Assembly (NCBI GenBank): GCA_002371135.1
Contig: DFGB01000045.1
Location: forward strand, 5,478 to 69,477
Length of the DNA stretch: 64,000 nt
Direction: 5' to 3'
Source: Verrucomicrobia bacterium UBA3761
Lineage (GTDB): Bacteria; Verrucomicrobiota; Kiritimatiellia; RFP12; UBA1067
Shown here: piece by piece, positions 1 to 45,599 of the stretch
How positions within the stretch are numbered: position 1 is the stretch's first letter
Layout: the number at the start of each line of letters is the position of its first letter
Notes under the pieces: model-generated
The model's input: only the letters and a program-made list of their open reading frames with translations
What the model was told of the DNA's origin: nothing
Databases searched by the model: none
Program-made: the position numbers and the translations under genes

Positions 1-3000
1 TGGGCGTCTTGGCCTTTACAACACGGCCGCCGGCGAGGGTCTCGCCGGTGTGGAAATCGCGCCAGTCGCCAGCAGGGAGCCAGACATCCATCTCTTCGAC
101 GTCGGCCGTCACAGGGCATACGAGAAGATCCGGTCCGAACATGTATTCAGTCTCGAAACCCTTCGGCGCGTCGTAGAGCGGACGCATCATCATCGCGTTG
201 TTCTCGACGACATCTTTCGCAACGCGGAGGATGTACGGCCTGAGCCTCTCGCGCAGGCGGATCTGATCGTTGAGCAGGCGTTCTGTTTCTTCGCCGTAGC
301 GCGAGGGCGTTGTATCGCTGACGAAGCCGTGGACGCGCTGGACGGGGCAGAACGTCGCGAACTGCATCCAACGCACGAGGCGCTTCTTGTAATCGCGGTT
401 CACATACTGGTCGGCAGGGCGGAAGAACCCACCGGCGTCGCTCGTCCAGTATGGGAAGCCGGCCGAAGCGAAGCCGAGCCCCGCGACGATCTGGTTGCGA
501 AGGTCGGACCACTTGTTGCCGACGTCGCCGCTCCACATGACGCACGACGTCCGCGTCTGGCCGGGGAAGGCGCAGCGCGTCAGGACGAGCGGAGTCTCGC
601 CGGGGCGAAGAGCGCGCATGCGGCGGTCCGCCTCCGTATTGACGAGCAGCGGGTAGATGTTGCGATACATGTCGCCCGAGCCCATCGCGAGCGTGCGACC
701 GTGGAGGGCATCGTTCTCCGGCTCGACCGCATCGAGCCACCACGCGTCGACGCCGGTCGAGACGAGGCGCTCCGCGAACCACTTCCAGTATAGATCCGCC
801 ACCGGCTTGTTCGAGAAATCGATCCACGGCGTGCCGGGGATGAAACCCTTTGCATCGTCAAGGGCGCGACGGAACGCGGAATCGCCCTCCGCCTTGGACC
901 AGACGCTGAGCATCACGCGCACGCCTCTCTCGTGGCATTCATCGACCATAGCCTTCGGGTCGGGGAAACGCCTCGGATCCCACTCCATCGAATTCCACGT
1001 GCCGTCGCGCCACCACTGCCAATCCTGCACGATGACGGAAAGAGGGAGGTCGCGGTCCTTGAAGTATCGCATCGCCTTGACGAGGTCGTTCTGCGTGACG
1101 AAGCGCTCCTGGCAATGCCAATAACCCCATGCCCAATCCGGCAACGCGGCGGTGCCGCCGCAGTCCGCGCGGAAATGGGCGACGGCCTCCTCGGGCCGTC
1201 CGGCATAGACGACGTAGTCGGTGCCGCCGGCGACGTCCGAGCGGAACGTCGTTTCGCAGCGGTCGGGGCGGAATGCAAGCGAAACGCGGTCGCCGGAGTC
1301 GGCGACGACGCGCACCTTGTGCGAACCGGCCTTGAGCGCGAGGCGGAAGCCGACCGCCGGCGGCAACCACACGTTCTCGTTGTTTACGACCGCGGCGCCG
1401 TCGATCTCGACATGCTGCATACGCGCCATGTCGCGGCCGCAGTCGAGCATGAACGCGTATTCGCCATCGCCTTCGACGGCGAACTCCCCTTCGAGCGCGA
1501 CACCCCTGCGCCTCTCCTTCGCGCCGCCGCTAGCCGTCGTCACCTCGACTTCACTCGCGGCGCCGTCGCCCGTCTTGCGAAGCTCGACAAAGTCGGTGCA
1601 TTCGTTGAACTCGATCTTGGAATAGTTGTGCCAGTAAAGCCCCCAGCCGCGCGTCGAAACGAGGAACGGCGCCGCAATCTGGGTATTCACCTGCACGAGG
1701 CGGCGCGGAAGATTCCTGACGTCAAGCTGGCCGTCCTGGAACTGGCCGAGCCCGAAAAGCCTCTCGCCCTGCGGCGAATCGAACGCGATCTCCTTGTCGC
1801 CGACGCGGCGCTCGGAGAGAATCGCCTTGCCGGAGACGTCTTCGAACCGCACGAGCCCGGACGCATGCGACACGACGGCGCAAAGTCCGCCGGACTTGAC
1901 GCGGGTAAAATCCCGCCCGCGCTCGACCTCGACCTGCGCCGCGCGGCCTGCGTCGAACACAAGCTCCGGCGAAACCGGCTCCCCGCGCGTCACGCGCAGT
2001 CCGCCCTCCGAGAACGACGACACCTTCACGTCGCCGCGCGCCGTCGCAATCGTCGCGGCCGCGCGGCCGCTGCAAATTGCAACCCTCCCGGGCGGCAAGT
2101 CGTATTCCGCAAGGACGCCGTTCAATTCGATTTTCAGTTTCCCGCCGCCCGTCGAACAGACCGTACAGTCTGTCACAATGCCGTCCTTCCACGCGAAATC
2201 GACCGTCCAGCCGCCGCGTGCGCGGAGGCCCTTCACAGCGCCGTCCGGCCAAGCCTTCGGGAGTGCGGGCAAGATGTCGACAAAGCCGCGGTGGCTCTGC
2301 AAAAGCATCTCGGCGATACCGGCCGTGCAGCCGAAGTTCCCGTCGATCTGGAATGGCGGATGCGCATCAAAAAGATTCGGATACGTCCCGCCGCCGCCGT
2401 GGTTGCGTCCGAGCGGAGAGAGCTGGTTCTGGATCAATTTGAACGCATGGTCGCCGTCGAGAAGCCGCGCCCACAGGCAGACGCGCCAACCCATCGCCCA
2501 GCCGGTCGAAATGTCACCACGCTTTTCAAGCGAAACGCGCGCGGCCTTGAAGAGCTCCGGCGTCTCGGGCGTGATCTGTGCGGAGGGATACAAGGCATAG
2601 AGGTGCGAGACGTGGCGGTGATGGTCGCCCTGTTCGTCAAGGTCGGCGCCCCACTCCTGCAACTGCCCCCACCTGCCGATGCGGTCGGGCTCTAGTTGCT
2701 CCAGGCGCTTCTCAAGCCGTGCGGCGAAATCTGCGTCGCGGCCGAGTTCCTGCGCGGCGGCGATCGCATTGCGCCACACGTCGCGAGCGAGCTGGTGGTC
2801 CATCATGCAGACAGGGTCGAAGCCGTTGGGGCGCCCCCGCACGATGTTCTCCGGCGAATTTGACGGGATGAACGCGAGGCGGCCCGTCTGCGGATTCTCT
2901 ATGGCGAAGGAGTCGTAGAACTCCGCCGCGCCCTTGAGAACGTCATAATGCTCCTCCAGGAATTTCCTGTCGCGCGTGTAGAGCCAATGCTCCCAGACGT

Positions 3001-4368
3001 GCGTCGAAAGCCAAGCGCCGCCGGACGGCCACCAGCCGCATGCAAGATACGTATCGACAGGCCCGGCGACGCGCCAGATGTCCGTGTTGTGGTGCGTCGT
3101 CCAGCCCTTCGCGCCATACATCTCTTTCGCGGCCTTGGCGCCGGTGACGGAAAGCTCGCGTATCATCTTGAAAAGCGGCGCGGCGAGTTCGCCGAGGTTC
3201 GTCGCCTCGGCCGGCCAGTAGTTCATCTCGGTGTTGATGTTCACAGTATACTTCGAGCCCCACGGCGGCTTGAGGCTGTTGTTCCAAAGCCCTTGAAGAT
3301 TCGCCGGCTGGCTTCCGGGCTGCGAGGACGAGATGAGTAGATAGCGTCCGTAGCGGAAGTACAGCGCGGCGAAATACGGGTCGTCCGACGCGGCGAAATC
3401 TGCGAGCCGCGCGTCGGTCGTCTTGTCGGGGAACTTGTCCGGACCGAGGTCGAGCGTGCAGCGATCGGCCTGGGCGCGATACGCCTTGCGGTGGGCGGCG
3501 AAAAGTTTATCGTGTCCGGCGGACGCGAGTTCGGCGAGCCGCGCATGCGCAACGGCGTCCGCGTCGCCGGAGATGTCATCGTAGCGTTTGAAATTCGTGC
3601 CGATCGCGACATAGACCGTCGCCGAGCTCGCATCCTTTACGCGCAGCGCCTCGCCTTCAGCCGAGACAACGCCGTCGCACTCCGCAATCTTGACGAGCAC
3701 CGTGTAGCGCACCTTGCCCGGCACGCCATCCTTGTCCGACGTGACGCCGCGCAAGACGAGCACGCCATCCTCGACCGATATCTCCGCATTGCCGTGCGCG
3801 CGCTCAAGCGATGCGCTGAACGCAAGCGCGCCGCCCTTCCCGTTCTCCGTGCCGAGCACATAGACGAAGCCCCCCTTGCCGAGCGGCGTGAAGGCGACGC
3901 GGGAATGCCGGACGCCATCCGCGCTGAATTCCACGCGGGCGAACGCGTCGTCGAGCGAAAGCGCGCGGCGGTAGTCCTCGACCTTGCCGTCGACACCTTC
4001 GAAATCCAGCTTGAGCGAACCGGGGTATTGATAGTTCATCCCGTGGTTGCGCGCGCCGGGGATGCGCCCGGGATTGGCGACATTCCAGTCGCCTGCGAGG
4101 ATCGCCTTTCTGATATCTGCAAGATGCGCCTTGAAATCTGGATTGACGTTCGAATTCGGCGAACCGCTCCAGACTGTGTCTTCATTGAGGTCCACCCTCT
4201 CGTGTTCCGCGCCGCCCCACACCATCGCGCCGACCGAACCCGAACCCAGCGCAAGCGCCTCCTCCCAGACCGACGCGCTCCTCGAATATTTCAATTCATA
4301 TCCCGCCGCGCCGGATGCCATCGCCGCCGCCCAGCACGCCGCGCACAAAATCGCACCTGCGTTTTTCA
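1..4368 (-). CDS. Multidomain glycoside hydrolase: N-terminal GH95 (alpha-L-fucosidase family) fused in-frame to C-terminal GH31 (alpha-xylosidase/alpha-glucosidase family). The 3' end lies beyond the window; at least 1455 aa are present.
   Basis: I translated the minus strand by hand from ATG 4368..4366 (RBS AAGGAG 7 nt upstream) with no stop to position 1; several stretches including the domain junction near 1981-2280 were re-read base by base. The N-terminus is a signal peptide followed by GH95 motifs (EALALGSGSVGAMVWGG..ERVDLNEDTVWSG; HRHVSHLYALYP; YPNLFDAHPPFQIDGNFGCTAGIAEMLLQS). After about 780 aa come GH31 motifs (VIVQDWQWW..WDPRRFPDP; WWLDAVEPE; WSGDVGNKWSDLRNQI). The ORF track omitted it because it runs off the window edge. 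Confidence 0.8.
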
Positions 4369-4439
4369 TCTTGCCAGTCTCCTTGATTGGATATTCCACG
4401 TATATTCTACCAAATTCCTTCCGCCTTGTCATATACCCG

Positions 4440-4680
4440 AAAGGGTGAAGAGGCCGCGCACGGGAGGACCGCGCTCATGCGCGGCCGAGGCAGGGAGCAA
4501 GAGATACGCTTGGCGCACAAGGAGGCGCGGCTTCAGCCGCGCAAAAACCAAAAGACGGTGCGCGGCTGAAGCCGCGCACCCCTGCTAGGGCATCCGCTTC
4601 GCGGACAGCCTTCGGCTGGGGGATATTCCTTGGCGTTAGTGGCCGCGGCTGACTGCCAACTGCCAACTGCTAACTTCCCA
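4440..4680. repeat. REP/BIME-like repeat cluster 1. It holds hairpins GCGCGGCT-TCA-AGCCGCGC at 4526..4543 and 4561..4578, one ~55-bp conserved unit B in reverse orientation at 4579..4636, and a CCAACTG tandem at 4655..4676.
   Basis: The sequence matches clusters at 11350, 20440 and 55790; the stem is a perfect 8-bp inverted repeat with a 3-nt loop, flanked by CAAGGAGG. Confidence 0.8.
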
Positions 4681-7749: not shown

Positions 7750-8580
7750 TTATTTCACATAATGCTTTGTCAGTTTGACGAGCGTCTTCCAGAGTTCCTC
7801 CTGGCTCTTGCACGAGCAGATCGCGTCTTGCGCGTCCTTCTTCTGGAAAGCGTTGACGAGGTCTGCGAGAAGGCGCAGGTAAAATGCGGAGACGGCGACC
7901 GGGATCGCGGAGAGGAACACCATGTGCACCTTCTCGCCTTCCCAGTCGATGCCCTCCTTGCTGACGCCGAGCGCGAGGGTGAGCGCGCCGCCTTCGACGC
8001 CGCGGACGTGCGGGAACGCGAGGCCGTTGCCAAGCGCGGTCGAGAGGATGTTCTCGCGGCTGATGGCGCCGGAGACGAGCGTATCGGCGTTGTCGATGAA
8101 GTTGTGCGCCTCCATCGCCGTCGCGAGTTCCTCGATGGCCCCGTCGCGCGTCGACGAAGAGAGCTCGGGGATCATCAATTCCTGCGCGCTGAAGCGGCAG
8201 ATGCCGACGCGGACCTCGTCGCGGTCGGGCTTTTCGGCGATGTTCTTCGGCGTGTCGTCGCCGTCCGCGAACAGGATGCGCCCGCAGCTGGAGCACGTCA
8301 CGAGGTGCTGGCCGAGGCGGACTTGCTGGTCCTGCGCGGTCGGGATCTGCATGCCGCAGACGGAGCAGGCGCCTTTGGTGCGGGCGGCGAGGACTATGTG
8401 GCTCTTCTTGTAGAGCCGCTCGTAGATCGTGGCGACCTGCGGAGAAAGCCGGCTTTTCAGCTTGTCGATCGAGTCGTTCAAGGCGTCGAGATGGCTGCCG
8501 TCGCCTGTCTGGAAATGTTCGTCGCGGATGAGCACCATCTCCTGGAGCTGGCGCATTATGTTGATCTGGCTTTTCATCAT
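7750..8580 (-). CDS. Fusion protein: N-terminal C4 zinc-ribbon (COG1579-like) and C-terminal PTS EIIA type-2 (PtsN / EIIA-Ntr-like) domain
   Basis: 276 aa; CSVCGMQIPTAQDQQVRLGQHLVTCSSCGRILF is the zinc-ribbon signature and ...LGNGLAFPHVRG... is the EIIA-2 active-site His region. An RBS AAGGGA sits 8 nt upstream. Confidence 0.65.
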   Translation of the reverse strand: MMKSQINIMRQLQEMVLIRDEHFQTGDGSHLDALNDSIDKLKSRLSPQVATIYERLYKKSHIVLAARTKGACSVCGMQIPTAQDQQVRLGQHLVTCSSCGRILFADGDDTPKNIAEKPDRDEVRVGICRFSAQELMIPELSSSTRDGAIEELATAMEAHNFIDNADTLVSGAISRENILSTALGNGLAFPHVRGVEGGALTLALGVSKEGIDWEGEKVHMVFLSAIPVAVSAFYLRLLADLVNAFQKKDAQDAICSCKSQEELWKTLVKLTKHYVK

Positions 8581-16237: not shown

Positions 16238-17929
16238 TCAAACGAGCCAATTCTCCGCCTTGCGGGAGATAGCATCGTACCACGCTTGCTCGTCTTCAGC
16301 CTCGCTTGCGACAGTCATCGAATATTCACAAAAAGCCCGGACTTTGGCTGGGCTTGGCACGTAGCCGCAATTCTTCGCCTGTGTCAGCATTCCCGCGAAG
16401 CGATCCAGCGTCAACGGTATCACAACAGACTTGCCGCCGTAATGTTTGATGGGAATCCGGTGCAGCCCATAGAAATGCGAAATGGAACTTGGATTTATTG
16501 TCGGCGCGACAAAAAGGCAATATGCCGGCTTGCCGGTCTTTGCCTTAATATCGCCAAGATGTCTGGCCACGGGCTCGCCTTCGGCATCATACTGCCTGTT
16601 GCCCGACATAAGTGTCACTTCAACCGTGACGGTGAAATCGCCATAGTCGCAAATGATGTCTGCATTGTTGCCTGGCGCGGTGGAAAGTGGATTGCCGGCA
16701 TCGTCAAATGTGAAGTTGGCTTTTATATTGCCGCCATCCATCATGGTCATCGCACGCCAAGCGTTCCACTCAAGAGCAAGTGGCGGGTCGTAAACATATT
16801 TTGCTTTGATGTCTTTGAACACGCCAAGAATCTCATCGTATTTTGCAAACGACTTGAGCTCCGTGACCTGAGCGTCGATGACTGCGGCTCGCCGAGCCTC
16901 TTGTGCGTGTTTGATGCGTCGTTTGAGTTCATTCGCACTTTGCCTGCGCGCGTCAGACTCCGAATCGACAGCCCCGCTCCTTACAGCCTTCTTCAAAAGC
17001 GTTTTGCGGTCGTCTGTCAACAGTCTAGGCGCGTCTGCACAGTAAAGATGTTCACAATACGCCGCTTTGTCAACCACAAAAACCGGGTTTCGGTCGACAG
17101 TCCTCAGAATATACTCAACCTCGTCGCGCCGCGACTCGATGATTGAAATCGTCCGTCCCGGATTGCCAATCGTAACGAGACCTGTTGCGCGAAGATAGCG
17201 TACGCAAGCATCGGCATAATCGCGCATATTGCCCGCCTTGGTCTTGATGAATTTTTCAAGACTTGTTTCATGCGACTCGCGTGTCCGAATGCATCCAGAT
17301 GCAATTTCCTGCGCAAACATCGAAGAGACTATGCGCGAACGTTCGCTGCTCAAGAACTTTTTATATTGCCCCTTGCGCGCGACCTTCTCCACTCTGAACC
17401 GGCGAACGGCATCGACAATCGCATCGAAGTCGTGCCAGTCTGTCAGTTGCATGCCGAAGAGGCACAATTCATCAAATGCCAATCGCCCCAACGAATGAAC
17501 AAGCCGGAGAATCTCAAGGTATGGACGAACGCAAAACGTCCTTGCAATCTTCGGATTCGCGATGTGAAATGGCGATGGCAGCTGAAATTTAAGCAACTGC
17601 CGCAAGAGGGCTTCTTCCGCTAAATCTCCATCAAGAAAATTCGCCCCGGCGGATGTAATCGATATTGGGTCGAGATTGACGAATCCCAGAGCCTTGGGAC
17701 CGCGGGTTATGCGGTCTCTTGCGCTCAGAGCAGGGTCTTTCTGATTGTACTCGCCCTCAAATTCTGGAAGTTGGGCGAGACGTTTCATGAAAGAGGCTTG
17801 CAGCGTGGTGTTGGATACCCACCTCGCCCCTGCAAACTCGCGGACGAGCAATTCAATTTCCGGACGCATCTTGAATGGCGTCCTTGGCGATGTCACGAAG
17901 AACAGCGAAGGGCTCTTGATTTTCGCCAT
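16238..17929 (-). CDS. Putative type II restriction endonuclease (563 aa), partner of the Dam-type methyltransferase
   Basis: It follows the methyltransferase gene with 1 nt of spacing (TGAcATG), lies in a low-GC islet, and has no other recognisable family. The specificity is probably GATC-containing, inferred only from the Dam-like partner. Confidence 0.45.
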   Translation of the reverse strand: MAKIKSPSLFFVTSPRTPFKMRPEIELLVREFAGARWVSNTTLQASFMKRLAQLPEFEGEYNQKDPALSARDRITRGPKALGFVNLDPISITSAGANFLDGDLAEEALLRQLLKFQLPSPFHIANPKIARTFCVRPYLEILRLVHSLGRLAFDELCLFGMQLTDWHDFDAIVDAVRRFRVEKVARKGQYKKFLSSERSRIVSSMFAQEIASGCIRTRESHETSLEKFIKTKAGNMRDYADACVRYLRATGLVTIGNPGRTISIIESRRDEVEYILRTVDRNPVFVVDKAAYCEHLYCADAPRLLTDDRKTLLKKAVRSGAVDSESDARRQSANELKRRIKHAQEARRAAVIDAQVTELKSFAKYDEILGVFKDIKAKYVYDPPLALEWNAWRAMTMMDGGNIKANFTFDDAGNPLSTAPGNNADIICDYGDFTVTVEVTLMSGNRQYDAEGEPVARHLGDIKAKTGKPAYCLFVAPTINPSSISHFYGLHRIPIKHYGGKSVVIPLTLDRFAGMLTQAKNCGYVPSPAKVRAFCEYSMTVASEAEDEQAWYDAISRKAENWLV

Positions 17930-17930
17930 G

Positions 17931-18788
17931 TCACACCTCGTAGTTTGTGACGACGTAGTGCGTTGCTTTGGAATGGAATCGATTGCGGATATTTACCGCG
18001 TAATCCTTTGCGTATTCAAACTTCACGAGGTCGCCATAAAGTTCCTCCGTCAATGGTGTATGACCAATGATCATCAACGCACGACAACGCAATTCCCGAA
18101 AAAGTTTGGCAAGCCGGCGATGCTCGGCCTCGTCAAATCCATTTGCCAGTTCCTGATTGCCATAATCGTTGAAAACACAATCATACGGCGGATCAAGATA
18201 CATAAAATCATTCTCTCCCGCCCGCCTGAACGATTCTTCGTAATCTGCGCACAGAATCTCCGTGCGTTGCAGAAGTCGGGAATGTTCGCGTGTGACAAGT
18301 CTGGTGTTGAAATTCTCGTATCTGCCGAACGGGACATTGAAATGCCCCTGCGCATTGAACCGTATCATACCAGAGTATGACGTCTTGTTAATGAAAAAAT
18401 ATAGCGCAGCCCGGGAATATTGCGCCGGAGCAATTCCATTGTATTGGTCGCGAAGTCTATAATACAATTCTTCGTTTGCGTTGGGAATCCGATCTCCCGG
18501 ATGCATTTTCTTTCTCTCTTTGTAATCCGCCTGATTGCGCACATAAATGGCTTCGATTTCTGCCAACTCTCGCGAAAGTTCATCAAAACGATTTCGAACA
18601 TCCCTGTAGAAGTTTATCAAGGGTTCATTTATGTCCCCGATAACCGCATGTTGCGGTGCAAGAGCAAAAAAAGTCGCCCCGCCCCCTACGAAAGGCTCAT
18701 AGTACGTTTCATAATTCTGCGGAATAAACCGTTCATACCGAGGAATCTCCTTGGACTTTCCACCACGATATTTGACAAGTGGTTTCAA
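17931..18788 (-). CDS. DNA adenine methyltransferase (Dam / D12-class N6-adenine methyltransferase)
   Basis: It starts with TTG at 18788 and a strong RBS AAAGGAAAGGAGA; the N-terminus MKPLVKYRGGKSKE matches the Dam start, and EPFVGGGA and DPPY motifs follow. The longer ORF-track N-terminus is rejected. Confidence 0.85.
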   Translation of the reverse strand: MKPLVKYRGGKSKEIPRYERFIPQNYETYYEPFVGGGATFFALAPQHAVIGDINEPLINFYRDVRNRFDELSRELAEIEAIYVRNQADYKERKKMHPGDRIPNANEELYYRLRDQYNGIAPAQYSRAALYFFINKTSYSGMIRFNAQGHFNVPFGRYENFNTRLVTREHSRLLQRTEILCADYEESFRRAGENDFMYLDPPYDCVFNDYGNQELANGFDEAEHRRLAKLFRELRCRALMIIGHTPLTEELYGDLVKFEYAKDYAVNIRNRFHSKATHYVVTNYEV

Positions 18789-19006
18789 GCCGGATCTCCT
18801 TTCCTTTGCAAGGCCGATACAAGGTGCCGCGGCCATCGCAGCAAGCATCCACCCAACGCGCTGCAAAAACTCCCCGCGCGTGATGCCTTGGCTTCTTTGG
18901 CACGATTTTGCCGACGTTCCCATTTCTTCTGTTCTCAAGCCTTTCATAGCCACGACACGAATGCAATATACAATCACAACGCCTATTGCGATTCATGCAC
19001 AACATA

Positions 19007-19138: not shown

Positions 19139-19214
19139 GGCGAGATAGCTCAGTTGGTAGAGCGCAGGACTCATAAGCCTAAGGTCAAGGGTTCGATCCC
19201 CTTTCTCGCCACCA
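19139..19214 (+). tRNA. tRNA with anticodon CAT (Met, or possibly Ile2/lysidine), 76 nt including the encoded CCA
   Basis: GGCGAGATAGCTCAGTTGGTAGAGC.. anticodon loop CTCATAA ..GGTTCGATCC..TCTCGCCACCA has good acceptor, D and T stems. The anticodon stem has only 3 Watson-Crick pairs (CAGGA/GCCTA). Confidence 0.8.
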
Positions 19215-38917: not shown

Positions 38918-40273
38918 ATGAAAACCATTCTCATTTTCACGTTGGCGGCTTTGTCCGGCGCGGCCCAGGCGGCGGACGGTGCCCTCATGCCGATCATCCA
39001 GACGAAGTTCACGGCCGACCCCGCGCCGTATGTCCACGATGGCGTCGTATATCTCTACACCACCCACGACGAAGACGACGCCGACGGTTTCAAGATGAAG
39101 GATTGGCTTCTCTACACTTCCACCGACATGGTGAACTGGCGCGACTGCGGCGCCGTCGCCTCGCTCGCCGATTTCCCGTGGGCCCGGAACAAGGAGAACG
39201 GCGCGTGGGCGCTGCAGGTGATCGAACGCGGCGGCAAGTGGTTCATGTATTGCCCGCTGCACGGCAACGGCATCGGCGTGCTCGTCGCCGATTCGCCTTA
39301 CGGCCCCTTCAAGGATCCTCTCGGCCATCCGCTCGTCTGGCAGAAGGAGCATTGGAACGACATCGACCCGACCGTGTGGATCGACGACGACGGCCAGGCC
39401 TATCTCTATTGGGGCAACCCGCACCTCTACGGCGTCAAACTGAACGAAGACATGATTTCGTATTCCGGCCAAATCGTCCAGTTCCCCAAGATACGCGACT
39501 ACCAGGAAGGGCCGTGGTTCTACAAGCGCAACGGACGCTACTACCTCGCATTCGCCTCCACCTGCTGCCCCGAGGGGATTGGATATGCGATGTCCGACGC
39601 GCCGTTCGGCCCGTGGGAATACAAGGGCCACATAATGGACCACACGCCAAAGACGCGCGGCAACCATCCCGGCATAATCGACTACAAAGGCAAGAGCTAC
39701 TGCTTCGGTCTCAACTACGACATCCTCCGCCTCTCCACCGATACGCACCACGAACGGCGCAGCGTCTCCGTGCAGGAAATGGAATACCGCGACGACGGCA
39801 CGATTCCCGAACTTCCGTACTTCAAGTCCGGCAAGTTGACGCAAATAGAGCCGTTCGATCCATACCGCCGCGTCGAAGCAGAAACGATGGCGTGGGGATA
39901 CGGGCTCAAGACGCGTCCCGACGTCCCCCGCACACTGCCGCAAAACCAGATCGTATTTGACGCCGACGATGGCGAATACATCCTCGTAAAAGGCGTGGAC
40001 TTCGCCGGCGGCGCGAAAGAAATGACGCTATCCATCAAGCCGCTCGCGCCTGGCGCCTCGATTGAAATCAGGCTCGACGCGCCGGACGGCGCGCTCGCCG
40101 GCAAGGTTGCGTTCGCGGAAGCGGCGGACGGATTTGAAACATTCACGACGCCGCTCGAAAACGCCTCCGGCGTGCACGACCTCTATTTCGTCTTCCGCTC
40201 GGGCGTCCCCGGCGGCAAGAACCTCCTCGAATTCGACTGGTGGCGTATCGCGCAAATAGGAAGCAGGAAGTAG
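38918..40273 (+). CDS. Glycoside hydrolase family 43 (beta-xylosidase / alpha-L-arabinofuranosidase-like) with a C-terminal carbohydrate-binding module
   Basis: A signal peptide and the GH43 catalytic region ..FTADPAPYVHDGVVYLYTTHDE.. ; a C-terminal beta-sandwich (CBM6-like). Confidence 0.8.
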   Translation: MKTILIFTLAALSGAAQAADGALMPIIQTKFTADPAPYVHDGVVYLYTTHDEDDADGFKMKDWLLYTSTDMVNWRDCGAVASLADFPWARNKENGAWALQVIERGGKWFMYCPLHGNGIGVLVADSPYGPFKDPLGHPLVWQKEHWNDIDPTVWIDDDGQAYLYWGNPHLYGVKLNEDMISYSGQIVQFPKIRDYQEGPWFYKRNGRYYLAFASTCCPEGIGYAMSDAPFGPWEYKGHIMDHTPKTRGNHPGIIDYKGKSYCFGLNYDILRLSTDTHHERRSVSVQEMEYRDDGTIPELPYFKSGKLTQIEPFDPYRRVEAETMAWGYGLKTRPDVPRTLPQNQIVFDADDGEYILVKGVDFAGGAKEMTLSIKPLAPGASIEIRLDAPDGALAGKVAFAEAADGFETFTTPLENASGVHDLYFVFRSGVPGGKNLLEFDWWRIAQIGSRK

Positions 40274-40337
40274 GAAGTAGAAAATTTGCCGCCCGGGCGT
40301 GTCGTACGCATTATCTCCTACTTCCTACCTCCTACTT
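40258..40337. repeat. Tandem-heptamer palindrome (GGAAGCA/GGAAGTA)x3 .. (CTACTTCC/CTACCTCC)x3
   Basis: It sits between convergent GH43 and pectinesterase genes and contains the TAG stop of GH43 and the last codons of the pectinesterase. Confidence 0.8.
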
Positions 40338-41222
40338 GATTTTTATCCACGGAAGGCGGCGCGATGTTTCGGCGCCCGTTCCGGTGCAGTTGTATTCGGC
40401 GAAAAACGCCGTCTTGTCGGTGCCGTCGTTTGGACGCCACTGGCTCCAGCCCTCGGGCTTGATGCAGTCGTCCATTACGCAACCGTCAAACACCACTTGC
40501 GCGTGCGGCCGCCAGGGGCGCCCCAGGAGCGTCTTGACGCCGGGCGCGGCGGTGATGCGGCAACGGCGGAAGAGGAAACCCTCGCGCCCCTCAGGCGTCG
40601 CCGCCGCCGTGATATATCCGCGCAGGAGACTGCGTATCTCGCAGCGGTCGAACACCGCGCGCGACTGGCCGAATATAAAATCGACCGTCCCCTCTATCAA
40701 ACACTCCTCGAAATGCTGTCCGCAATAGCGCGTATACTCGGGCTCTTTCGCCCACTCCTTGACGCCCTGCGAGACATACAGGGTGTCCTGATGGCCGGAG
40801 ATGCGGCACTTGGCCACTTCCACGCCGTCGCCCTCGATGTGCAGCGCGACGGCCTGGCCGACGCCGCGTCCGCCGGCGGCGACATTCGCGTCCGACGCCG
40901 TGTTGCGTATCCAAAGGCCCGCAAGCCGCACATCGTCGGCCTCGACTTTCATCGTCCACGTGCGGAACGTGCCAAGCGCCTCGCCGGCGGAATTCGTGAG
41001 CGAGGCATAGTCGCCCCACTCCACCACCGCCTCGCCCGGCCCTTCGTGCACGATGGCGAGAGCGCGCTTCTCGCGCGGAATCGTCACCTTCTCGCGCCAG
41101 ACGCCATCGGGAAGCGTAATCATATCGCCGGGCTTGGCGGCGTCGATCATCTCCTGCAGCGTCGCCGCGGCGGCGGACGAAACCGCGGCGACCGCCGCCA
41201 GCATCGCGAGCGCCGCCTTCAC
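40332..41222 (-). CDS. Pectin methylesterase (carbohydrate esterase family 8)
   Basis: It has a signal peptide and the CE8 motifs GHQDTLY, DFIFG and LGRPW; a probable GTG start overlaps the paaK stop (GTGA). Confidence 0.85.
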   Translation of the reverse strand: MKAALAMLAAVAAVSSAAAATLQEMIDAAKPGDMITLPDGVWREKVTIPREKRALAIVHEGPGEAVVEWGDYASLTNSAGEALGTFRTWTMKVEADDVRLAGLWIRNTASDANVAAGGRGVGQAVALHIEGDGVEVAKCRISGHQDTLYVSQGVKEWAKEPEYTRYCGQHFEECLIEGTVDFIFGQSRAVFDRCEIRSLLRGYITAAATPEGREGFLFRRCRITAAPGVKTLLGRPWRPHAQVVFDGCVMDDCIKPEGWSQWRPNDGTDKTAFFAEYNCTGTGAETSRRLPWIKIK

Positions 41223-42487
41223 TTCCTTATCACCCTCTTCGCCTTGCCTTCGGAACGCGGGAGCGAACCGACGGGGAACACATCGCCCTTCGGCAGGAAC
41301 CCGAGGCGCTCGCGCAGATGCTTGGCGACGGTGTGGCCGGTGACGCCGGGCTCGGCTTCAACGTTGATCGTCACGTCCGTCATGCCGTCGTGCTCTTCGA
41401 GGATGATCTGGAATTCGTCCTTGACGCCCGGTATCTCCATGAGGGCCTGCTCCACCTGGCGGGGATAGAAGTTGACGCCCTTGACGATGAGCATGTCGTC
41501 GGTGCGGCCCGTGATGCGGTCGAGACGCAGGCTCGTGCGGCCGCATTCGCATTTCTCGCGGCTGACGATGCGCGAAATATCGCGCGTGCGGTAGCGGATG
41601 ATCGGCATCGCCTCGCGGGTGAGCGACGTGAACACGACCTCGCCGTATTCGCCGTCCTCGACGTTCTTGCCGGTGACGGGGTCGATGATTTCGGTGATAT
41701 ATTGGTCTTCCCAGACGTGGATGCCGGCGTGGGCGTGGCAGTCCTGGCCCGTGGTGCCGATGCCGCCCGTTTCGGTCATGCCGTAGATGTCGAAGCACTC
41801 GATGTGGAGGCGGCTCTCGATGCGCTTGCGCATTTCATCGGAGAACGTCTCGGAGCCGAAGATGCCGACCTTGAGCGAAGGAATGTCGTAGTTGCCGTTC
41901 GGGTCGGCGTCGAGCTTCTCGATGATGCGCGGGACGTAGGAGACGACGGAGCAGAAGCCCTTGACGTGGAAGTCTCGCATGAGCTTGATCTGTCGCTCGG
42001 TGTTGCCGCTTGAAGCGGGGACGCAGAAGAGGCCGGCCTTGCGGCAGCCCTGGTAGCAGCCAAACCCGCCGTTGAAGAGGCCGAACGTGGGCATGATCTG
42101 GAACGCGTCGCCGGCCTCGAGTCCCGCCATCGAGAAACAGCGCGCCATGCACTCCGCCCACTGCATGAGATCGCCCTTCGTATACGCCATCACGACGGGC
42201 GTGCCGGTGGAGCCGCTGGACATGTGGAACTCGCGCAGCTCCGAACGGTCCACGCACGACATCTTGAGCGGATACGCGTCGCGGAAGTCGTCCTTCGTGA
42301 GGAACGGCAGTTTCGGGAGGTCGTCGAGCGAAGTCACGTCCTCCGGCGAAGAGACGCCCGCGGCCATGAGGCGCGAGCGGTAGAATTCGTTCGTCCATGC
42401 GCGGCGGAGGGTCTTCACGAGGCCCTTAAGCTGCAACTCGGCAAGCCGCTCGCGCGGCAGGGTTTCAAGTTCGCGATTCCAGAACAT
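41219..42487 (-). CDS. paaK: Phenylacetate-CoA ligase family protein (PaaK / F390-synthetase-like adenylate-forming enzyme)
   Basis: It starts at MFWNRELETLPRERL with an RBS AAGGATAAAGCC; ..SSGSTGTPVV.. is the AMP-binding signature. Confidence 0.75.
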   Translation of the reverse strand: MFWNRELETLPRERLAELQLKGLVKTLRRAWTNEFYRSRLMAAGVSSPEDVTSLDDLPKLPFLTKDDFRDAYPLKMSCVDRSELREFHMSSGSTGTPVVMAYTKGDLMQWAECMARCFSMAGLEAGDAFQIMPTFGLFNGGFGCYQGCRKAGLFCVPASSGNTERQIKLMRDFHVKGFCSVVSYVPRIIEKLDADPNGNYDIPSLKVGIFGSETFSDEMRKRIESRLHIECFDIYGMTETGGIGTTGQDCHAHAGIHVWEDQYITEIIDPVTGKNVEDGEYGEVVFTSLTREAMPIIRYRTRDISRIVSREKCECGRTSLRLDRITGRTDDMLIVKGVNFYPRQVEQALMEIPGVKDEFQIILEEHDGMTDVTINVEAEPGVTGHTVAKHLRERLGFLPKGDVFPVGSLPRSEGKAKRVIRK

Positions 42488-42520
42488 GGCTTTATCCTTG
42501 TTTTTTTGTGGAAATGGCAA

Positions 42521-43114
42521 TCAGGCGCCGGCGGCGGCGCGGCCGAGGTCGAACGCCTTTATGTTGAGGTCGAGGAGTTTCGCCTTCGATCCTGTAAAAC
42601 TCTCTTTCATCGTCGCCTTCCAGGCGTCCGGCGAGAACGGAGTCAACGTGGAGAGCGCGCCCGCGAGAACCATGTTCATCGTGCGCTCGTTGCCGACCTC
42701 CTCCTTGGCGATGCGTGCGGCGTCGACGACGATCGCGCCCGGCAGCGCGGCGCGCATTTTCCCGTCGAGGTCCTCCACCGCCTTCTGCTGGCCGGACGAA
42801 ACCGTAACCGGCACGAGGAACGTATCGGCGACGACCGCGCGTCCTTCAGGCGCGAGGAGATGCGCCCAGCGCAGCGCCTCGAGCTTGTCGAACGAAACGA
42901 GTATGTCGCTCGTCCCTTCCTGAATTATCGGCGAGGCGACGGCGTCGCCAAACCTCACCTGGCTTATCACGGAACCGCCGCGCTGGGCCATGCCGTGAAT
43001 CTCGCTTTTCTTGACGTCCAGCCCTTCGCGGGCCGCGGTCTTCGCGAGCAAATCGCTCGTGAGCAGCGTTCCCTGGCCGCCTACGCCTACAAGGCTTACA
43101 TTTACAGTCTTCAT
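42521..43114 (-). CDS. iorB: Indolepyruvate:ferredoxin oxidoreductase subunit beta (IorB; 2-oxoacid:ferredoxin oxidoreductase gamma-type)
   Basis: 197 aa; MKTVNVSLVGVGGQGTLLTSDLLAKTAAREGLDVKKSEIHGMAQRGGSV. Confidence 0.75.
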   Translation of the reverse strand: MKTVNVSLVGVGGQGTLLTSDLLAKTAAREGLDVKKSEIHGMAQRGGSVISQVRFGDAVASPIIQEGTSDILVSFDKLEALRWAHLLAPEGRAVVADTFLVPVTVSSGQQKAVEDLDGKMRAALPGAIVVDAARIAKEEVGNERTMNMVLAGALSTLTPFSPDAWKATMKESFTGSKAKLLDLNIKAFDLGRAAAGA

Positions 43115-43115
43115 T

Positions 43116-43334
43116 TTACGCCACTCTCTCGACTGTGATTTCCGGGTCGATCTCCTGCAACGCGGTCTCGATGCCCTGCTTGAGCGTCATCATCGCGAAC
43201 GGACACGAACCGCAGTGGCCCGTGAGCTTGAGATACACGACCTTGCCGTCGATTTTCACGAGTTCGCAATCGCCGCCGTCCGCCTGCAGACCGCCGCGCA
43301 ATTCATCGAGCTTCGCCTTGATAGCTTCTTCCAT
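43116..43334 (-). CDS. NifU-like (Nfu-type) Fe-S cluster scaffold domain protein
   Basis: 72 aa; TGHCGSCPFAMMTLKQGIETAL (CxxC) is typical of the NifU C-terminal domain. Confidence 0.7.
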   Translation of the reverse strand: MEEAIKAKLDELRGGLQADGGDCELVKIDGKVVYLKLTGHCGSCPFAMMTLKQGIETALQEIDPEITVERVA

Positions 43335-43352
43335 ATCACTCCTTGTTCGGAT

Positions 43353-43382
43353 TTTTGCCGTATATTATACCATTTGCCCCGC
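43353..43382 (-). promoter_or_regulatory. Sigma70-type promoter TTGACC-N18-TGGTATAAT (minus strand) for nfu-iorB-paaK
   Basis: It is nearly identical to the promoters at 45524 and 59486; an RBS AAGGAGTGAT precedes the nfu ATG. Confidence 0.6.
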
Positions 43383-43461
43383 CATAGGGTCAAGGGGAGG
43401 TGTTGCCGGCAGTGGCAGTCGAGCGGCGCCTGGAGATTCTAGATGCGCCGGCAATAGAAGC

Positions 43462-43488
43462 GCCACGGGCCCGCACGGGCCCGTGGCG
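43462..43488 (-). terminator. 12-bp-stem hairpin GCCACGGGCCCG-CAC-GGGCCCGTGGC downstream of pckG
   Basis: A perfect inverted repeat between the pckG stop and the nfu promoter. Confidence 0.55.
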
Positions 43489-43515
43489 CTTTGCGTTGGG
43501 CTAAATCGCCCGCGC

Positions 43516-45468
43516 TTACTTTTCGAGCGCGGCGGTGACGTCCGCGAGGACCTGGCGCAGCGCGGCCGGGACGCGGCGCGCGTCCTTGTTCACCGCAGTC
43601 GAATCCTTCGACGCCTTCTGGTCGTACTCGTCGTAGGAAGCGCCGACGGTGGCGATTTCCTTTTTCCAGCCTTCCTTGTCGACCTTGAGAATCTCCTTGA
43701 GCATCTCGGGGCAGACGGTGAAGCCGGGCTCGCCCTCGTTGTTGGAGAGGTCGATATCCTCGAACTTCGGGAGGTTGCCGATCGCCGTCTCGTTGGCGCC
43801 GACCTTGCCGTCGATGCGCTCGCAGATCCACTTGAGGACGCGCGAGTTGTCGCCGAAGCCCGGCCACATGAACTCGCCCTTGTCGGACTTGCGGAACCAG
43901 TTGACGAAGTAGATCTTCGGCAGCTTGGTGGGATTGACGCTCGTGCGCTCCATCTCGAGCCAGTGCTGGAAGTAGTCGGCGACGTTGTAGCCGAAGAACG
44001 GGAGCATGGCCATCGGGTCGCGGCGGACCTTGCCGACATCGTTGGAGATGATGGCGGCGGTGACTTCGGAACCGGCGGCCGAACCCATGAACACGCCGTG
44101 GGTCCAGCTCTTCGCCTCGTTGACGAGCGGGATGGTGGAAGGACGGCGGCCGCCGAAGAGAATCGCGTCGATCGGCACTCCGGTGGGCTTCTTCTCGAAC
44201 TTGCCGTTGAAGCCTTCCTTGTCGAGGACGGGGCAGTTGACCGCAGGCGCGGTGAAGCGCGAATTCTTGTGCGCGGCGACGTAGCCCATCTCCTTGACTT
44301 CAGCCTTCGTCATGCCGGGCTTGGGGCCCATGCGGCGCGCGTCGTCGACGCAGCGGTAGCAGGGATTGCCCTTCCAGTCGATGCCTTCCTCAGGCGCGTC
44401 GACGCCCATATCCTCCCACCAGATGTCGCCGTCGGGCGTGAGAACGACGTTCGTGAAGATCGTGTTCTTCTTGCAGGAGAGAAGCGCGTTGGGGTTGGAG
44501 AACTTCGAAGTGCCGGGAGCGACACCGAAGAAGCCGTTTTCGGGGTTGATGGCGTAGAGACGGCCGTCCGCGCCGGGCTTGAGCCACGCGATATCGTCGC
44601 CGATCGTCTCGAGCTTCCAGCCTTCGAGCTTGGGCTGCATCATCGCGAGATTCGTCTTGCCGCAGGCGGAGGGGAACGCCGCCGTGACGTGATACTTCTT
44701 GCCCTCGGGCGAGGTGAGGGTCAAAATGAGCATGTGCTCGGCCATCCAGCCCTGGTCCTTGGCGAGCTTGGAAGCGATGCGCAGGGCGAAGCACTTCTTG
44801 CCGAGAAGCGCGTTGCCGCCGTAGCCCGAACCGAACGACCAGATTTCGCCGTCCTCGGGGAACTGCGTGATGTACTTGTCCTCGATCCTCTTCGCGCAAG
44901 GCCACGCGACGTCCTTCTGGCCCTTCTTGAGAGGAGCGCCGACGGAGTGGATGCAGGGGACGAAATCGCCGCCCTTGTCGAGGAACTTCATCACGGCGTC
45001 GCCGGTGCGCGTCATGATGTCCATGTTCACGACGACGTAGGGCGAGTCGGTGAGCTCGATGCCATACTGCGTGATCGGGTTGCCGATCGGACCCATCGCG
45101 AACGGGATGACGTACATCGTGCGGCCGGCCATGCAGCCCTTGTACGCCTTCTCCATCTTCTTCTTCATCTCGACGGGGTCCATCCAATGGTTCGTGGGAC
45201 CGGCGTCGATTTCATTCTTGGAGCAGATGAACGTGCGGCCTTCGACGCGCGCCACGTCGCTCTCGTGCGAACGCGCCAGATAGCACCCGGGGCGCTTCTT
45301 CTGGTTGAGCTTCACGAACTGGCCCTTCTTGACCATCATCTCGCAGATGGCGGTGTGCTCTTCCTTGGTTCCCTTCACGACCACGATCTTGTCGGGCGTG
45401 CAGATCTTGTTCCATTTTTCAACCCAGGCGGCTACCTTGGGATTCGCGAATTTCGGCATCTTTGCCAT
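43516..45468 (-). CDS. pckG: Phosphoenolpyruvate carboxykinase (GTP)
   Basis: About 650 aa with GTP-PEPCK motifs (FPSACGKTNLAMM; GDDIAWL..; YFVNWFRK); the start is set at MAKMPKF with an RBS AAGGAG. Confidence 0.9.
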   Translation of the reverse strand: MAKMPKFANPKVAAWVEKWNKICTPDKIVVVKGTKEEHTAICEMMVKKGQFVKLNQKKRPGCYLARSHESDVARVEGRTFICSKNEIDAGPTNHWMDPVEMKKKMEKAYKGCMAGRTMYVIPFAMGPIGNPITQYGIELTDSPYVVVNMDIMTRTGDAVMKFLDKGGDFVPCIHSVGAPLKKGQKDVAWPCAKRIEDKYITQFPEDGEIWSFGSGYGGNALLGKKCFALRIASKLAKDQGWMAEHMLILTLTSPEGKKYHVTAAFPSACGKTNLAMMQPKLEGWKLETIGDDIAWLKPGADGRLYAINPENGFFGVAPGTSKFSNPNALLSCKKNTIFTNVVLTPDGDIWWEDMGVDAPEEGIDWKGNPCYRCVDDARRMGPKPGMTKAEVKEMGYVAAHKNSRFTAPAVNCPVLDKEGFNGKFEKKPTGVPIDAILFGGRRPSTIPLVNEAKSWTHGVFMGSAAGSEVTAAIISNDVGKVRRDPMAMLPFFGYNVADYFQHWLEMERTSVNPTKLPKIYFVNWFRKSDKGEFMWPGFGDNSRVLKWICERIDGKVGANETAIGNLPKFEDIDLSNNEGEPGFTVCPEMLKEILKVDKEGWKKEIATVGASYDEYDQKASKDSTAVNKDARRVPAALRQVLADVTAALEK

Positions 45469-45523
45469 AATTGTTCTTGCTCCTTGAATACCCTCTTCGG
45501 GCATGGTTAAAGGTATTGGTGTG

Positions 45524-45552
45524 TATTATACCATTTGCGGCGCGAGGGGTCA
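45524..45552 (-). promoter_or_regulatory. Sigma70-type promoter TTGACC-N17-TGGTATAAT (minus strand) for pckG
   Basis: It shares the consensus with the promoters at 21891, 43353 and 59486. Confidence 0.6.
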
Positions 45553-45599
45553 AGAGGGGTGCGAAGAAATCAAGAGTCTCCGGCGGGGGCGGGCGCCTT

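Follow-up and report, generated by a model that had tools for sequence, protein, structure and literature searches.

A predicted GH95-GH31 bifunctional exo-glycosidase from an uncultured gut-type Kiritimatiellae bacterium, with arabinoxylan side chains as a candidate substrate

The fusion gene and its junction

At the left end of the window (the whole 64,000-nucleotide stretch of DNA analysed here) lies a minus-strand coding sequence, 2..4369, that encodes residues 1-1456 of a 1,470-residue GH95-GH31 protein, as judged from its open frame, Pfam, the database protein P0121 and GC3. The frame is open from 4474 to 2 (1,491 codons, zero stops), which agrees with the unbroken frame of the original prediction. 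The start that it placed at 4368 is one base off: the ATG occupies 4369-4367 and the frame translated from 4368 is stop-ridden. P0121 is 1,470 aa long and 100% identical across the 1,456 residues encoded in the window, and therefore just 14 C-terminal residues fall outside it, with the stop codon 42 nt past window base 1 as calculated from the length of P0121. As had been supposed, the gene is missing from the ORF list because the ORF tool omits ORFs that leave the source sequence. The ORFs listed on the plus strand over the gene have no Pfam match, and their GC1/GC3 pattern is a mirror image of that in the true frame; they are shadows of that frame.

Upstream, again on the minus strand, we read a ribosome-binding site (AAGGAG, 4379..4384) 9 nt 5' of the ATG and a candidate sigma-70-like promoter at 4404..4432 (ATGACA, a 17-nt spacer and TG-TAGAAT), which by consensus match only has 10/12 matches plus an extended -10, against 0.1 expected in shuffles. 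Further upstream, at the 3' end of a sugar-transferase gene, there is a terminator-like hairpin on the same strand (4557..4580) with a 10-bp stem, 9 GC pairs and a T-rich tail; termination at this hairpin would leave the fusion gene as a separate transcription unit. A second hairpin lies directly downstream of the first.

The junction between the modules, predicted at about 2000-2100, is found at residues 766-777 (nt 2074-2039), and it contains neither a stop nor a frameshift. Measured over 150 codons at a time, in-frame GC3 stays within 0.75-0.89 along the whole ORF, and it is 0.84 across the junction. The same junction is present in two variants at 97% identity (P0001 and P0122) and one at 81% (P0003), which come from different assemblies (including ENA assemblies), and it is shared by a relative at 44% identity (P0005). 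Single-ORF fusions were also found in L083, L084 and L002. A missed stop or frameshift is very unlikely because of the uniform GC3, the database protein P0121 and the same architecture at 97%, 81% and 44% identity. The Logan assembly L001 has identical DNA across the 4,368 nt, and it may have been built from the same reads as the window.

That possible shared origin is one of two points in favour of an artefact, in which a missed stop, a frameshift or a chimeric assembly would have made two neighbouring genes look like one. The other is a yak-rumen Bacteroidales locus (L028) where GH31 and GH95 lie in one frame a single TAG apart, a layout that one base error could turn into an apparent fusion. 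Against this, the downstream GH31 module of the fusion has no internal start codon and no signal peptide, the modules are separated by an 11-residue linker rather than by the full lipoprotein signal peptide of L028, GC3 is even across the junction, and the junction recurs in the variants described above. We therefore regard an artefact as highly improbable.

Domains and active sites of the two modules

The original prediction of a single chain with a complete GH95 module followed by an alpha-xylosidase-like GH31 module is borne out by Pfam profile search, in which two distinct families match distinct halves of the protein. All features that follow are on the minus strand. A Sec signal peptide (MKNAGAILCAACWAAAMASGAAG, 4301..4369, residues 1 to ~23) is predicted by eye, and the alignment of the mature GH95 module to the structure 4UFC begins at residue 23, which suggests that the protein would be exported. 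The GH95 module then consists of an N-terminal beta-supersandwich (Glyco_hyd_65N_2 or GH65N_2, 3584..4294, residues 26-262, PF14498, E 1.1e-45), an (alpha/alpha)6 catalytic domain (2303..3511, residues 287-689, PF22124, E 2.7e-168) and, at the C-terminus, a beta-sandwich (2075..2299, residues 691-765, with PF21307, GH95_C, at 691-751). All three domains match above the Pfam cut-offs, and alignments to 4UFC and 7KMQ span the whole module, the latter extending to residue 763. The linker SGRAAATIATA (2039..2071, residues 767-777) lies past the GH95 alignment and ahead of the point where stand-alone GH31 relatives start.

The GH31 module has the core architecture of its family, as seen by Pfam and in the structural model: an N-terminal beta-sandwich (Gal_mutarotas_2, PF13802, 1598..2038, residues 778 to ~924, Pfam match 781-921), a (beta/alpha)8 barrel (PF01055, 230..1150, residues 1074-1380, E 2.8e-70) and a proximal C-terminal beta-sandwich (PF21365, 2..190, residues 1394-1456, Pfam match 1394-1454) that continues to residue 1470 off the window. 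Following the N-terminal beta-sandwich is a PA14-like all-beta insert carrying W1001 (1295..1597, residues ~925-1025), identified by alignment and model; the Pfam PA14 model itself has no match to the fusion protein, this region included. The distal C-terminal domain DUF5110 is absent, with no Pfam match and a protein that stops at residue 1470.

GH95 enzymes are inverting alpha-L-galactosidases or alpha-L-fucosidases. The catalytic domain of the GH95 module (287-689) contains T375, N377 and N379, which correspond to T370, N372 and N374 of BoGH95 (4UFC), along with E507, which corresponds to BoGH95 Glu501, and D676, the Asp of QIDGNFG, which corresponds to Xac D690 (7KMQ). Thus the set required for the inverting mechanism (the Asn pair, the Glu and the QIDGNFG Asp) is conserved. 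The module is 44.4% identical to the L-galactosidase 4UFC and 44.7% identical to the xyloglucan fucosidase 7KMQ. The Thr at position 375 has no diagnostic value for L-Gal versus L-Fuc, as XacAfc95 shows.

All of the motifs quoted in the original prediction for the GH31 module (VQDWQWW...WDPRRFPDP, WWLDAVEPE and MWSGDVGNKWSDLRNQI) are present in the fusion translation. The barrel contains W1117, W1182, D1213 and D1282. D1213, in WWLDAVEPE (the W-x-D-x-x-E motif), is the nucleophile and aligns to XacXyl31 D564; D1282, in MWSGDVG (the W-S/T-G-D motif), is the acid/base and aligns to D640; and W1117 aligns to W453, the C6 steric barrier at the -1 subsite. By alignment, W1001, the equivalent of XacXyl31 W328, and W1182 form aromatic platforms. 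Their XacXyl31 equivalents contact the xyloglucan-oligosaccharide backbone, and the GH31 of the Bacteroides locus L078 keeps both as well, so these two residues do not discriminate substrate.

The best-scoring solved relatives of the GH31 module are all alpha-xylosidases. An AlphaFold model of the module (pLDDT 85, pTM 0.88) has as its top structure matches the alpha-xylosidases 7KMP, 2XVG and 5JOU, which bear PA14 (TMq 0.85-0.88), as opposed to 0.72 for the PA14-less MeXyl31. To our knowledge no structure of a xylan-type GH31 has been solved, so the fold match does not discriminate between xylan and xyloglucan types. In sequence, the module shares 38-42% identity with the L078 GH31 (496 bits) and 31-35% with xyloglucan alpha-xylosidases (229-245 bits), and in a neighbour-joining tree it and the L078 enzyme share a clade that excludes XacXyl31, CjXyl31A and BoGH31A. 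The GH31 module is very probably a retaining alpha-D-xylosidase. By sequence, one polypeptide here holds two complete catalytic modules with conserved catalytic residues, as a multicatalytic CAZyme (two or more such modules) does, and we are all but certain that it is a real two-module enzyme, which we propose to be a bifunctional exo-glycosidase.

Relatives, genomic context and known systems

The fusion gene is solitary, among unrelated genes, in the window and likewise in L083 and L085. A valyl-tRNA synthetase is also encoded in the window; it shares 83-88% identity with proteins named as Kiritimatiellae MAGs, which agrees with the host stated here. The gene set of a xyloglucan utilization locus or XyGUL (a GH5_4/GH9/GH74 endo-xyloglucanase, GH2/GH35, GH3 and a transporter) was not found within 60 kb in the window, nor was it found in L083, L084 or L085. 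No PUL was found in the window either, and the only companion of the type found in the Bacteroides ovatus PUL-XylL is one GH43-CBM6, 34 kb from the fusion gene and 42.6% identical to the GH43-CBM6 of L078. The window also encodes the pectin-type CAZymes CE8 and GH78.

Among relatives whose modules are 70-85% identical, fusions take the forms GH95-GH31-GH43, GH43-GH31-GH95, GH43-GH95 and GH95-GH97, and GH31-GH95 is seen in relatives at about 80% identity, the module orders observed being 95-31, 31-95, 95-31-43, 43-31-95, 43-95 and 95-97. The neighbours of the GH31-GH95 gene in L084 are GH43-CBM6, GH97, an MFS transporter and GH43. The Bacteroidota-type fusion P0005, with a GH43-CBM6 gene upstream, shares 59% identity with the characterised L-galactosidase and 60% with the L078 GH31. 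The full set of PUL-XylL-type partners is found in L078 and L074, whose GH95s are 62-66% identical to BACOVA_03438 (4UFC) and which also contain GH43-CBM6, GH97, GH8, BD-FAE and CE1-like esterases. This agrees with the published gene content of PUL-XylL, and we class both loci as PUL-XylL-type (complex-xylan) loci. Overall, GH31, GH97, GH43 and GH95 recur together in two phyla, whether fused or encoded near one another. The same GH31 clade is also fused to GH127, GH2-like and MGH1-like modules, and GH95 to CE6, GH2 or a second GH95. In one relative (P0020), GH95 is joined to a GH2-like module, a pairing that would fit a Fuc-Gal sequence as well.

Among solved relatives, the GH95 module scores highest (670 bits) against BACOVA_03438 (BoGH95, PDB 4UFC), which is the alpha-L-galactosidase of B. 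ovatus PUL-XylL, has the same three domains and aligns over residues 23-748. The identity is just 44%, however, equal to that with the fucosidase XacAfc95, and BoGH95 is a stand-alone, periplasmic, PUL-encoded enzyme whereas a solitary gene encodes the GH95 module here, as the N-terminal part of a fusion. The xylan-specific GH31 alpha-xylosidase of PUL-XylL, BACOVA_03422, is highly active on corn glucuronoarabinoxylan and inactive on XXXG, XXFG or XLFG, its preference for the xylan being about 3,000-fold. The L078 GH31 is probably its counterpart, as suggested by synteny and GH95 identity, and this L078 enzyme shares with the GH31 module a neighbour-joining clade, the PA14-like insert, the Asp pair and the C6-barrier Trp, with GH97, GH43-CBM6 and GH95 as genomic partners both there and in the relatives of the GH31 module. 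They differ in that DUF5110 is present in L078 and absent here. The GH31 modules of the window and of L078 are just ~40% identical, which weighs against arabinoxylan.

XacXyl31 (7KMP), CjXyl31A (2XVG) and BoGH31A (5JOU) are similar to the GH31 module in that the equivalents of W328, W453, W524, D564 and D640 are all conserved. Their arrangement is matched, by alignment and fold, as far as the PA14-like insert with W1001, but they belong to another clade; their genes lie in XyGULs, and each encodes a free-standing enzyme of four domains, the distal C-terminal one included. Characterised multicatalytic CAZymes, several of which act on complex xylan, share with the fusion the pattern of two complete catalytic modules and a short linker (BeCE15A-Rex8A, BeGH43/FAE, BoCE6-CE1 and the GH9-GH48 enzyme CelA). 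These have other module pairs, and the clade of the fusion goes beyond them in having the same modules in both orders as well as triple fusions. Our literature search found no published GH95-GH31 enzyme.

The probable substrate and its implications

What might such an enzyme act on? The original prediction was a two-step xyloglucan-debranching enzyme. Here GH95 would be an alpha-1,2-L-fucosidase on F side chains and GH31 a non-reducing-end alpha-1,6-xylosidase acting on xyloglucan oligosaccharides. Consistent with this, each half has a Xanthomonas XyGUL enzyme among its high-scoring solved relatives (7KMQ and 7KMP), the GH31 fold is closest among solved structures to xyloglucan alpha-xylosidases, the PA14, W1182 and C6-barrier tryptophans are conserved, the GH95 module is equidistant from xyloglucan fucosidase and xylan L-galactosidase, GH31 and GH95 are syntenic in proteobacterial XyGULs, and GH43 arabinofuranosidases are found in xyloglucan systems too. 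However, in the Fuc-Gal-Xyl side chain of xyloglucan a GH2 or GH35 beta-galactosidase has to act after GH95 and before GH31, so the two steps do not follow one another. GH31 alpha-xylosidases act solely at the non-reducing end, and a GH3 beta-glucosidase must alternate with GH31 in xyloglucan breakdown. No endo-xyloglucanase, GH35 or GH3 is near the fusion gene in the window or in relatives. The GH31 module also falls outside the Xac/Cj/Bo clade, and a GH97 fusion partner and GH43-CBM6 neighbours fit glucuronoarabinoxylan rather than xyloglucan. The GH43 and GH97 modules fused in close relatives, and the genes around unfused Bacteroidota orthologues, likewise indicate glucuronoarabinoxylan. 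Hence the predicted fusion stands and its assignment to xyloglucan appears unlikely. Less likely still is that the modules act on unrelated glycans (GH95 on pectin RG-II, arabinogalactan or host fucosylated glycans, and GH31 on any alpha-xyloside), with the fusion being neutral or an accident of co-expression. Such an origin would suit the frequent module shuffling in the clade, the pectin-type CE8 and GH78 genes in the window and the several multicatalytic CAZymes reported to lack intramolecular synergy. It sits poorly with the non-random partners, as GH31, GH97, GH43 and GH95 co-recur over two phyla and match adjacent linkages of one known side chain.

That side chain belongs to cereal arabinoxylan, which we favour, by somewhat better than an even chance, as the main source of substrate for the fusion. 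The published side chains are FAXG, FAXGX and FAXGG, where FAXGX is alpha-D-Xyl-(1,3)-alpha-L-Gal-(1,2)-beta-D-Xyl-(1,2)-feruloyl-Araf, a minor side chain in maize. From these structures, GH31 or GH97, then GH95, then GH43 would be consecutive steps, and these activities are synergistic on corn-fibre oligosaccharides. We suggest that the enzyme works in the periplasm, stripping the outer sugars from complex, feruloylated side chains of glucuronoarabinoxylan, those of the FAXGX type. The GH31 module would take off the terminal alpha-xylose, the GH95 module would remove the alpha-L-galactose thereby exposed, and the beta-xylose would be left to a GH43, which in some relatives is fused on the same chain. 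As the gene is solitary, with unrelated neighbours, an organism that does not group these genes into PUL operons would, through the fusion, be assured that consecutive steps are co-expressed and co-exported in equal molar amounts. The frame, the domain layout, the catalytic residues, the recurrent fusion and the relationships of clade and neighbourhood are observed, whereas export, substrate, the order in which the modules act and any kinetic gain from fusing them are our inference.

More tentatively, gut Kiritimatiellae may build "pathway-on-a-polypeptide" enzymes, in which modules for successive feruloylated side-chain linkages are concatenated and re-ordered, with fusion replacing the PUL or operon and with product perhaps passing directly between active sites. 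The set of fusions would then be a Rosetta stone by which this GH31 clade and this GH95 clade are assigned to removal of the alpha-1,3-xylosyl and alpha-1,2-L-galactosyl units of FAXGX.

Oligomeric feruloylated side chains are thought to slow the enzymatic digestion and the fermentation of cereal arabinoxylan, and corn-fibre GAX oligosaccharides hold linkages that resist breakdown. Few enzymes are known for these side chains, with only two corn-xylan-active alpha-xylosidases and, in total, only two alpha-L-galactosidases reported. If the arabinoxylan reading is correct, one chain would carry out the first two trimming steps, with a relative adding the third, which would make it a compact candidate for enzyme cocktails in feed and biorefining and a clean test system for kinetic synergy from fusing consecutive exo-glycosidases. 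It would in turn allow fusion-based functional annotation of the poorly characterised GH31 and GH95 clades. Were the substrate xyloglucan, this would nonetheless be the first described fucosidase/alpha-xylosidase fusion. The fusion also illustrates how the trimming of glycans in several steps may be co-ordinated in a gut bacterium of the PVC group that has no PULs.

The GH95-GH31 reading frame

Here, we find that the left end of the window encodes GH95 and GH31 modules in a single polypeptide, as the original prediction held. This is based on an open frame, even codon composition at the junction, and the same architecture in other assemblies. The minus-strand frame runs without a stop from 4474 to base 2 (1,491 codons) and has an ATG at 4369-4367, preceded by AAGGAG at 4384-4379 and by a promoter-like site at 4432-4404. 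The start had been placed one base too low, at 4368, where the frame is full of stops. All motifs quoted from the frame are found in the 1,456 aa product that the window encodes, and the C-terminus is supplied by P0121, a database protein of 1,470 aa that is 100% identical across all 1,456 of these residues and extends 14 residues past the window (IDRIPVYIRANAAL). The gene was rightly said to be missing from the ORF list, which omits ORFs that run off the source, as this one does. The plus-strand (antisense) ORFs in 1-4588 were considered as genes and rejected as shadows, since they have no Pfam matches and their codon GC is a mirror image of that of the true frame.

That the fusion is an artefact we regard as extremely improbable, given the full-length identity of P0121 and the recurrence of the architecture elsewhere at 97% identity (P0001 and P0122, variants from other ENA assemblies), at 81% (P0003/P0137, with an additional GH43 module, a single ORF in contig L083), and at 44% (P0005, likewise a single ORF, in contig L002). 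Also against an artefact, in-frame GC3 is 0.75-0.89 in every 150-codon window, junction included, and the GH31 module, which follows the linker SGRAAATIATA, carries neither a start codon nor a signal peptide of its own. In addition, a Logan contig (L001) carries identical DNA across the fusion gene and its 5' flank.

The two catalytic modules

The two motif sets do not belong to one family: Pfam puts GH95 and GH31 in separate halves of the protein, with GH65N_2 (residues 26-262), the GH95 catalytic domain (287-689, E 2.7e-168), and GH95_C (691-751) in the former, and Gal_mutarotas_2 (781-921), the TIM barrel (1074-1380, E 2.8e-70), and the proximal C domain (1394-1454) in the latter. Solved relatives agree, GH95 structures spanning residues 18-773 and GH31 alpha-xylosidases approximately 947-1456.

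The GH95 module aligns end to end with both the Bacteroides ovatus alpha-L-galactosidase BACOVA_03438 (BoGH95, 4UFC; 44.4% identity) and the Xanthomonas xyloglucan fucosidase XacAfc95 (7KMQ; 44.7%). Its catalytic positions are conserved, with T375, N377, N379, and E507 corresponding to BoGH95 T370, N372, N374, and Glu501, and D676 to XacAfc95 D690. The polymorphic Thr/His site was rejected as an indicator of L-Gal versus L-Fuc specificity, as XacAfc95 carries Thr yet is a fucosidase. Being equally far from the fucosidase and the galactosidase, and with Thr not diagnostic, the module is assigned to neither L-Gal nor L-Fuc.

In the GH31 module, the nucleophile D1213, the acid/base D1282, W1117, W1182, and W1001 (in a PA14-like insert) are conserved and align to D564, D640, W453, W524, and W328 of XacXyl31 (7KMP). 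W1117 is the C6 steric barrier, the defining trait of alpha-xylosidases. An AlphaFold model of the module (pLDDT 85, pTM 0.88) matches the PA14-bearing alpha-xylosidases 7KMP, 2XVG (CjXyl31A), and 5JOU (BoGH31A) at TMq 0.85-0.88, compared with 0.72 for MeXyl31, which lacks PA14. Unlike these three PA14-bearing enzymes, the fusion protein has no distal DUF5110 domain, since it stops at residue 1470. The PA14 Trp, W1182, and the C6-barrier Trp were rejected as discriminators between xyloglucan and xylan, as a xylan-locus GH31 carries all three too.

Arabinoxylan side chains or xyloglucan

In light of these modules, what might the substrate be? The original prediction, a two-step xyloglucan-debranching enzyme, was right about both modules, but the GH31 phylogeny, the neighbourhoods of unfused orthologues, and the fusion partners all point away from xyloglucan. 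The window GH31 shares 38-42% identity (496 bits) with the GH31 of the Bacteroides locus L078, which is of the type of PUL-XylL, the complex-xylan locus of B. ovatus, and only 31-35% (229-245 bits) with XacXyl31, CjXyl31A, BoGH31A, and MeXyl31. In a neighbour-joining tree it groups with the GH31s of L078, of a yak-rumen Bacteroidales MAG (L028), and of P0005, separately from the xyloglucan clade.

The closest unfused GH95 orthologues in Bacteroidota (44-50% identity) have GH43+C2, GH97, and sometimes GH31 orthologues no more than 10 kb away. The gene order in L078 is GH97, GH43, esterase, GH95, GH43+C2, GH97, GH43-CBM6, GH31, esterase, and a second Bacteroides locus of this type, L074, contains GH97, GH97, GH43-CBM6-GH8, CE6-GH95, GH43+C2, and BD-FAE. 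The GH95s of both are 62-66% identical to BACOVA_03438, and the GH31/GH97/GH43-CBM6 block of L078 corresponds to PUL-XylL genes 03422-03424. Judged by this synteny and by how closely the neighbouring GH95 matches 4UFC, the L078 GH31 is probably the counterpart of BACOVA_03422; B. ovatus is not named among the best 120 matches to it. Of the PUL-XylL enzymes, the GH97 acts on pNP-alpha-D-galactopyranoside, and alpha-L-galactosidase is the activity of the GH95. Two of these L074 genes (L074:6600-12379) encode other multicatalytic enzymes, GH43-CBM6-GH8 and CE6(SASA)-GH95 (GH95 part 66% identical to 4UFC), with the BD-FAE esterase near.

The cereal arabinoxylan side chain FAXG is alpha-L-Gal-(1,2)-beta-D-Xyl-(1,2)-5-O-feruloyl-Araf, which in FAXGX bears an alpha-D-Xyl-(1,3) cap and in FAXGG an alpha-D-Gal-(1,3) cap. 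From these published structures, exo-trimming would have to proceed by GH31 or GH97, then GH95, then a beta-xylosidase. A GH31 alpha-xylosidase, a GH95 alpha-L-galactosidase, and GH43 enzymes show synergy on corn-fibre oligosaccharides because terminal residues need removal first.

The modules fused in relatives are exactly those that the trimming order demands. Among relatives with modules at 70-85% identity, the arrangements are GH95-GH31-GH43+C2 (P0003), GH31-GH95 (P0002 and P0134), GH43+C2-GH31-GH95 (P0129), GH43+C2-GH95 (P0006), and GH95-GH97 (P0004). In another contig, L084, a GH31-GH95 gene has genes for GH43-CBM6, GH97, an MFS transporter, and GH43 on its flanks. P0005, a more distant fusion with a CBM6-GH43 gene upstream, shares 59% identity with the L-galactosidase and 60% with the L078 GH31. 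In one relative (P0020), GH95 is joined to a GH2-like module. The same GH31 clade is also found fused to an MGH1-like GH, a GH2-like barrel, and a GH127 beta-L-arabinofuranosidase (P0148, P0161, and P0172).

We thus lean slightly towards the fusion trimming arabinoxylan side chains, a reading weakened by FAXGX being a minor side chain in maize, by the joining of GH95 to a GH2-like module in P0020, and by the equal distance of the window GH95 from a fucosidase and a galactosidase. Action on xyloglucan we consider unlikely: besides the evidence of clade, neighbourhood, and partners, the removal of fucose from xyloglucan and that of xylose are separated by a beta-galactosidase step, and GH31 works from the non-reducing end only, in alternation with a beta-glucosidase. 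That the two modules have uncoupled activities seems quite improbable.

Genomic setting and origin of the fusion

By its valyl-tRNA synthetase, which shares 83-88% identity with proteins named 'MAG: Kiritimatiellae bacterium', the window is placed in the Kiritimatiellae. A terminator-like hairpin (4580-4557) closes the upstream sugar-transferase gene before the fusion gene; the 240-nt spacer between the two genes has a pair of adjoining G+C-rich hairpins at 4520-4590, one of which scores as a terminator. The genes further upstream encode an FGGY kinase, a D-Ala-D-Ala carboxypeptidase, and other proteins with no link to glycan breakdown. Downstream of the fusion gene, directly left of window base 1, L001:4728-9996 carries the Type I-E CRISPR-Cas genes cas3 and cse1 and a RhuM-family gene.

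Within the 64-kb window there is no PUL and no xyloglucan locus. Its other CAZymes (38918-47933) are dispersed, without PUL arrangement: a GH43-CBM6 (38918-40273; 42.6% identity to the L078 gene of BACOVA_03424 type), a CE8 pectinesterase (40332-41222), and a GH78 rhamnosidase (45600-47933), among which lie an acyl-AMP ligase-like gene and a GTP-dependent PEPCK. Elsewhere, an AlwI-type restriction endonuclease (16238-17929, minus) and a D12-class N6-adenine methyltransferase (17931-18977, minus) adjoin a tRNA-Met (19139-19214, plus), a minus-strand ORF at 7750-8580 unusually pairs C4 zinc-ribbon and PTS EIIA-2 domains, and a minus-strand ORF of 1,807 aa (50060-55483) has coding-like GC3 (0.73) and no Pfam matches.

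How might such a fusion arise? In the yak-rumen MAG (L028:2700-2900), a GH31 and a GH95 gene lie side by side in one frame with TAG TAT ATG between them, the GH95 retaining its own lipoprotein-like signal peptide; a single point mutation separates the pair from a fusion. In Formosa (L082), the adjacent genes have the opposite order. Both loci gave one match spanning both halves and were rejected as fusions, being two adjacent genes. The Kiritimatiellae fusions have a short linker in place of the downstream module's signal peptide, SGRAAATIATA in the case of the window and ASVGPA in that of P0002; in P0003, GH31 joins GH43 with no linker. P0003 (95-31-43) and P0002/P0129 (31-95 order) share about 85% identity in both modules and are slightly closer to each other than either is to the window, so the change of module order is recent; it could have come about by duplication then deletion, or by repeated independent fusion.

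Multicatalytic CAZymes are a known class and both modules are members of known families; literature searches found no paper on a GH95-GH31 enzyme. The fused proteins are database entries without names, in small clusters of 3, 26, 6, and 1 members. No representative in a 50%-identity library, searched with residues 287-1456, spans both halves, so that fusions lie hidden beneath single-module representatives and the search is no census of them.

In the window and in the contigs L083 and L085, the fusion genes are solitary among housekeeping genes, which suggests that fusion may stand in for operon or PUL co-regulation. More notable than the single fusion in the window is the pathway-coherent family of shuffled fusions to which it belongs.
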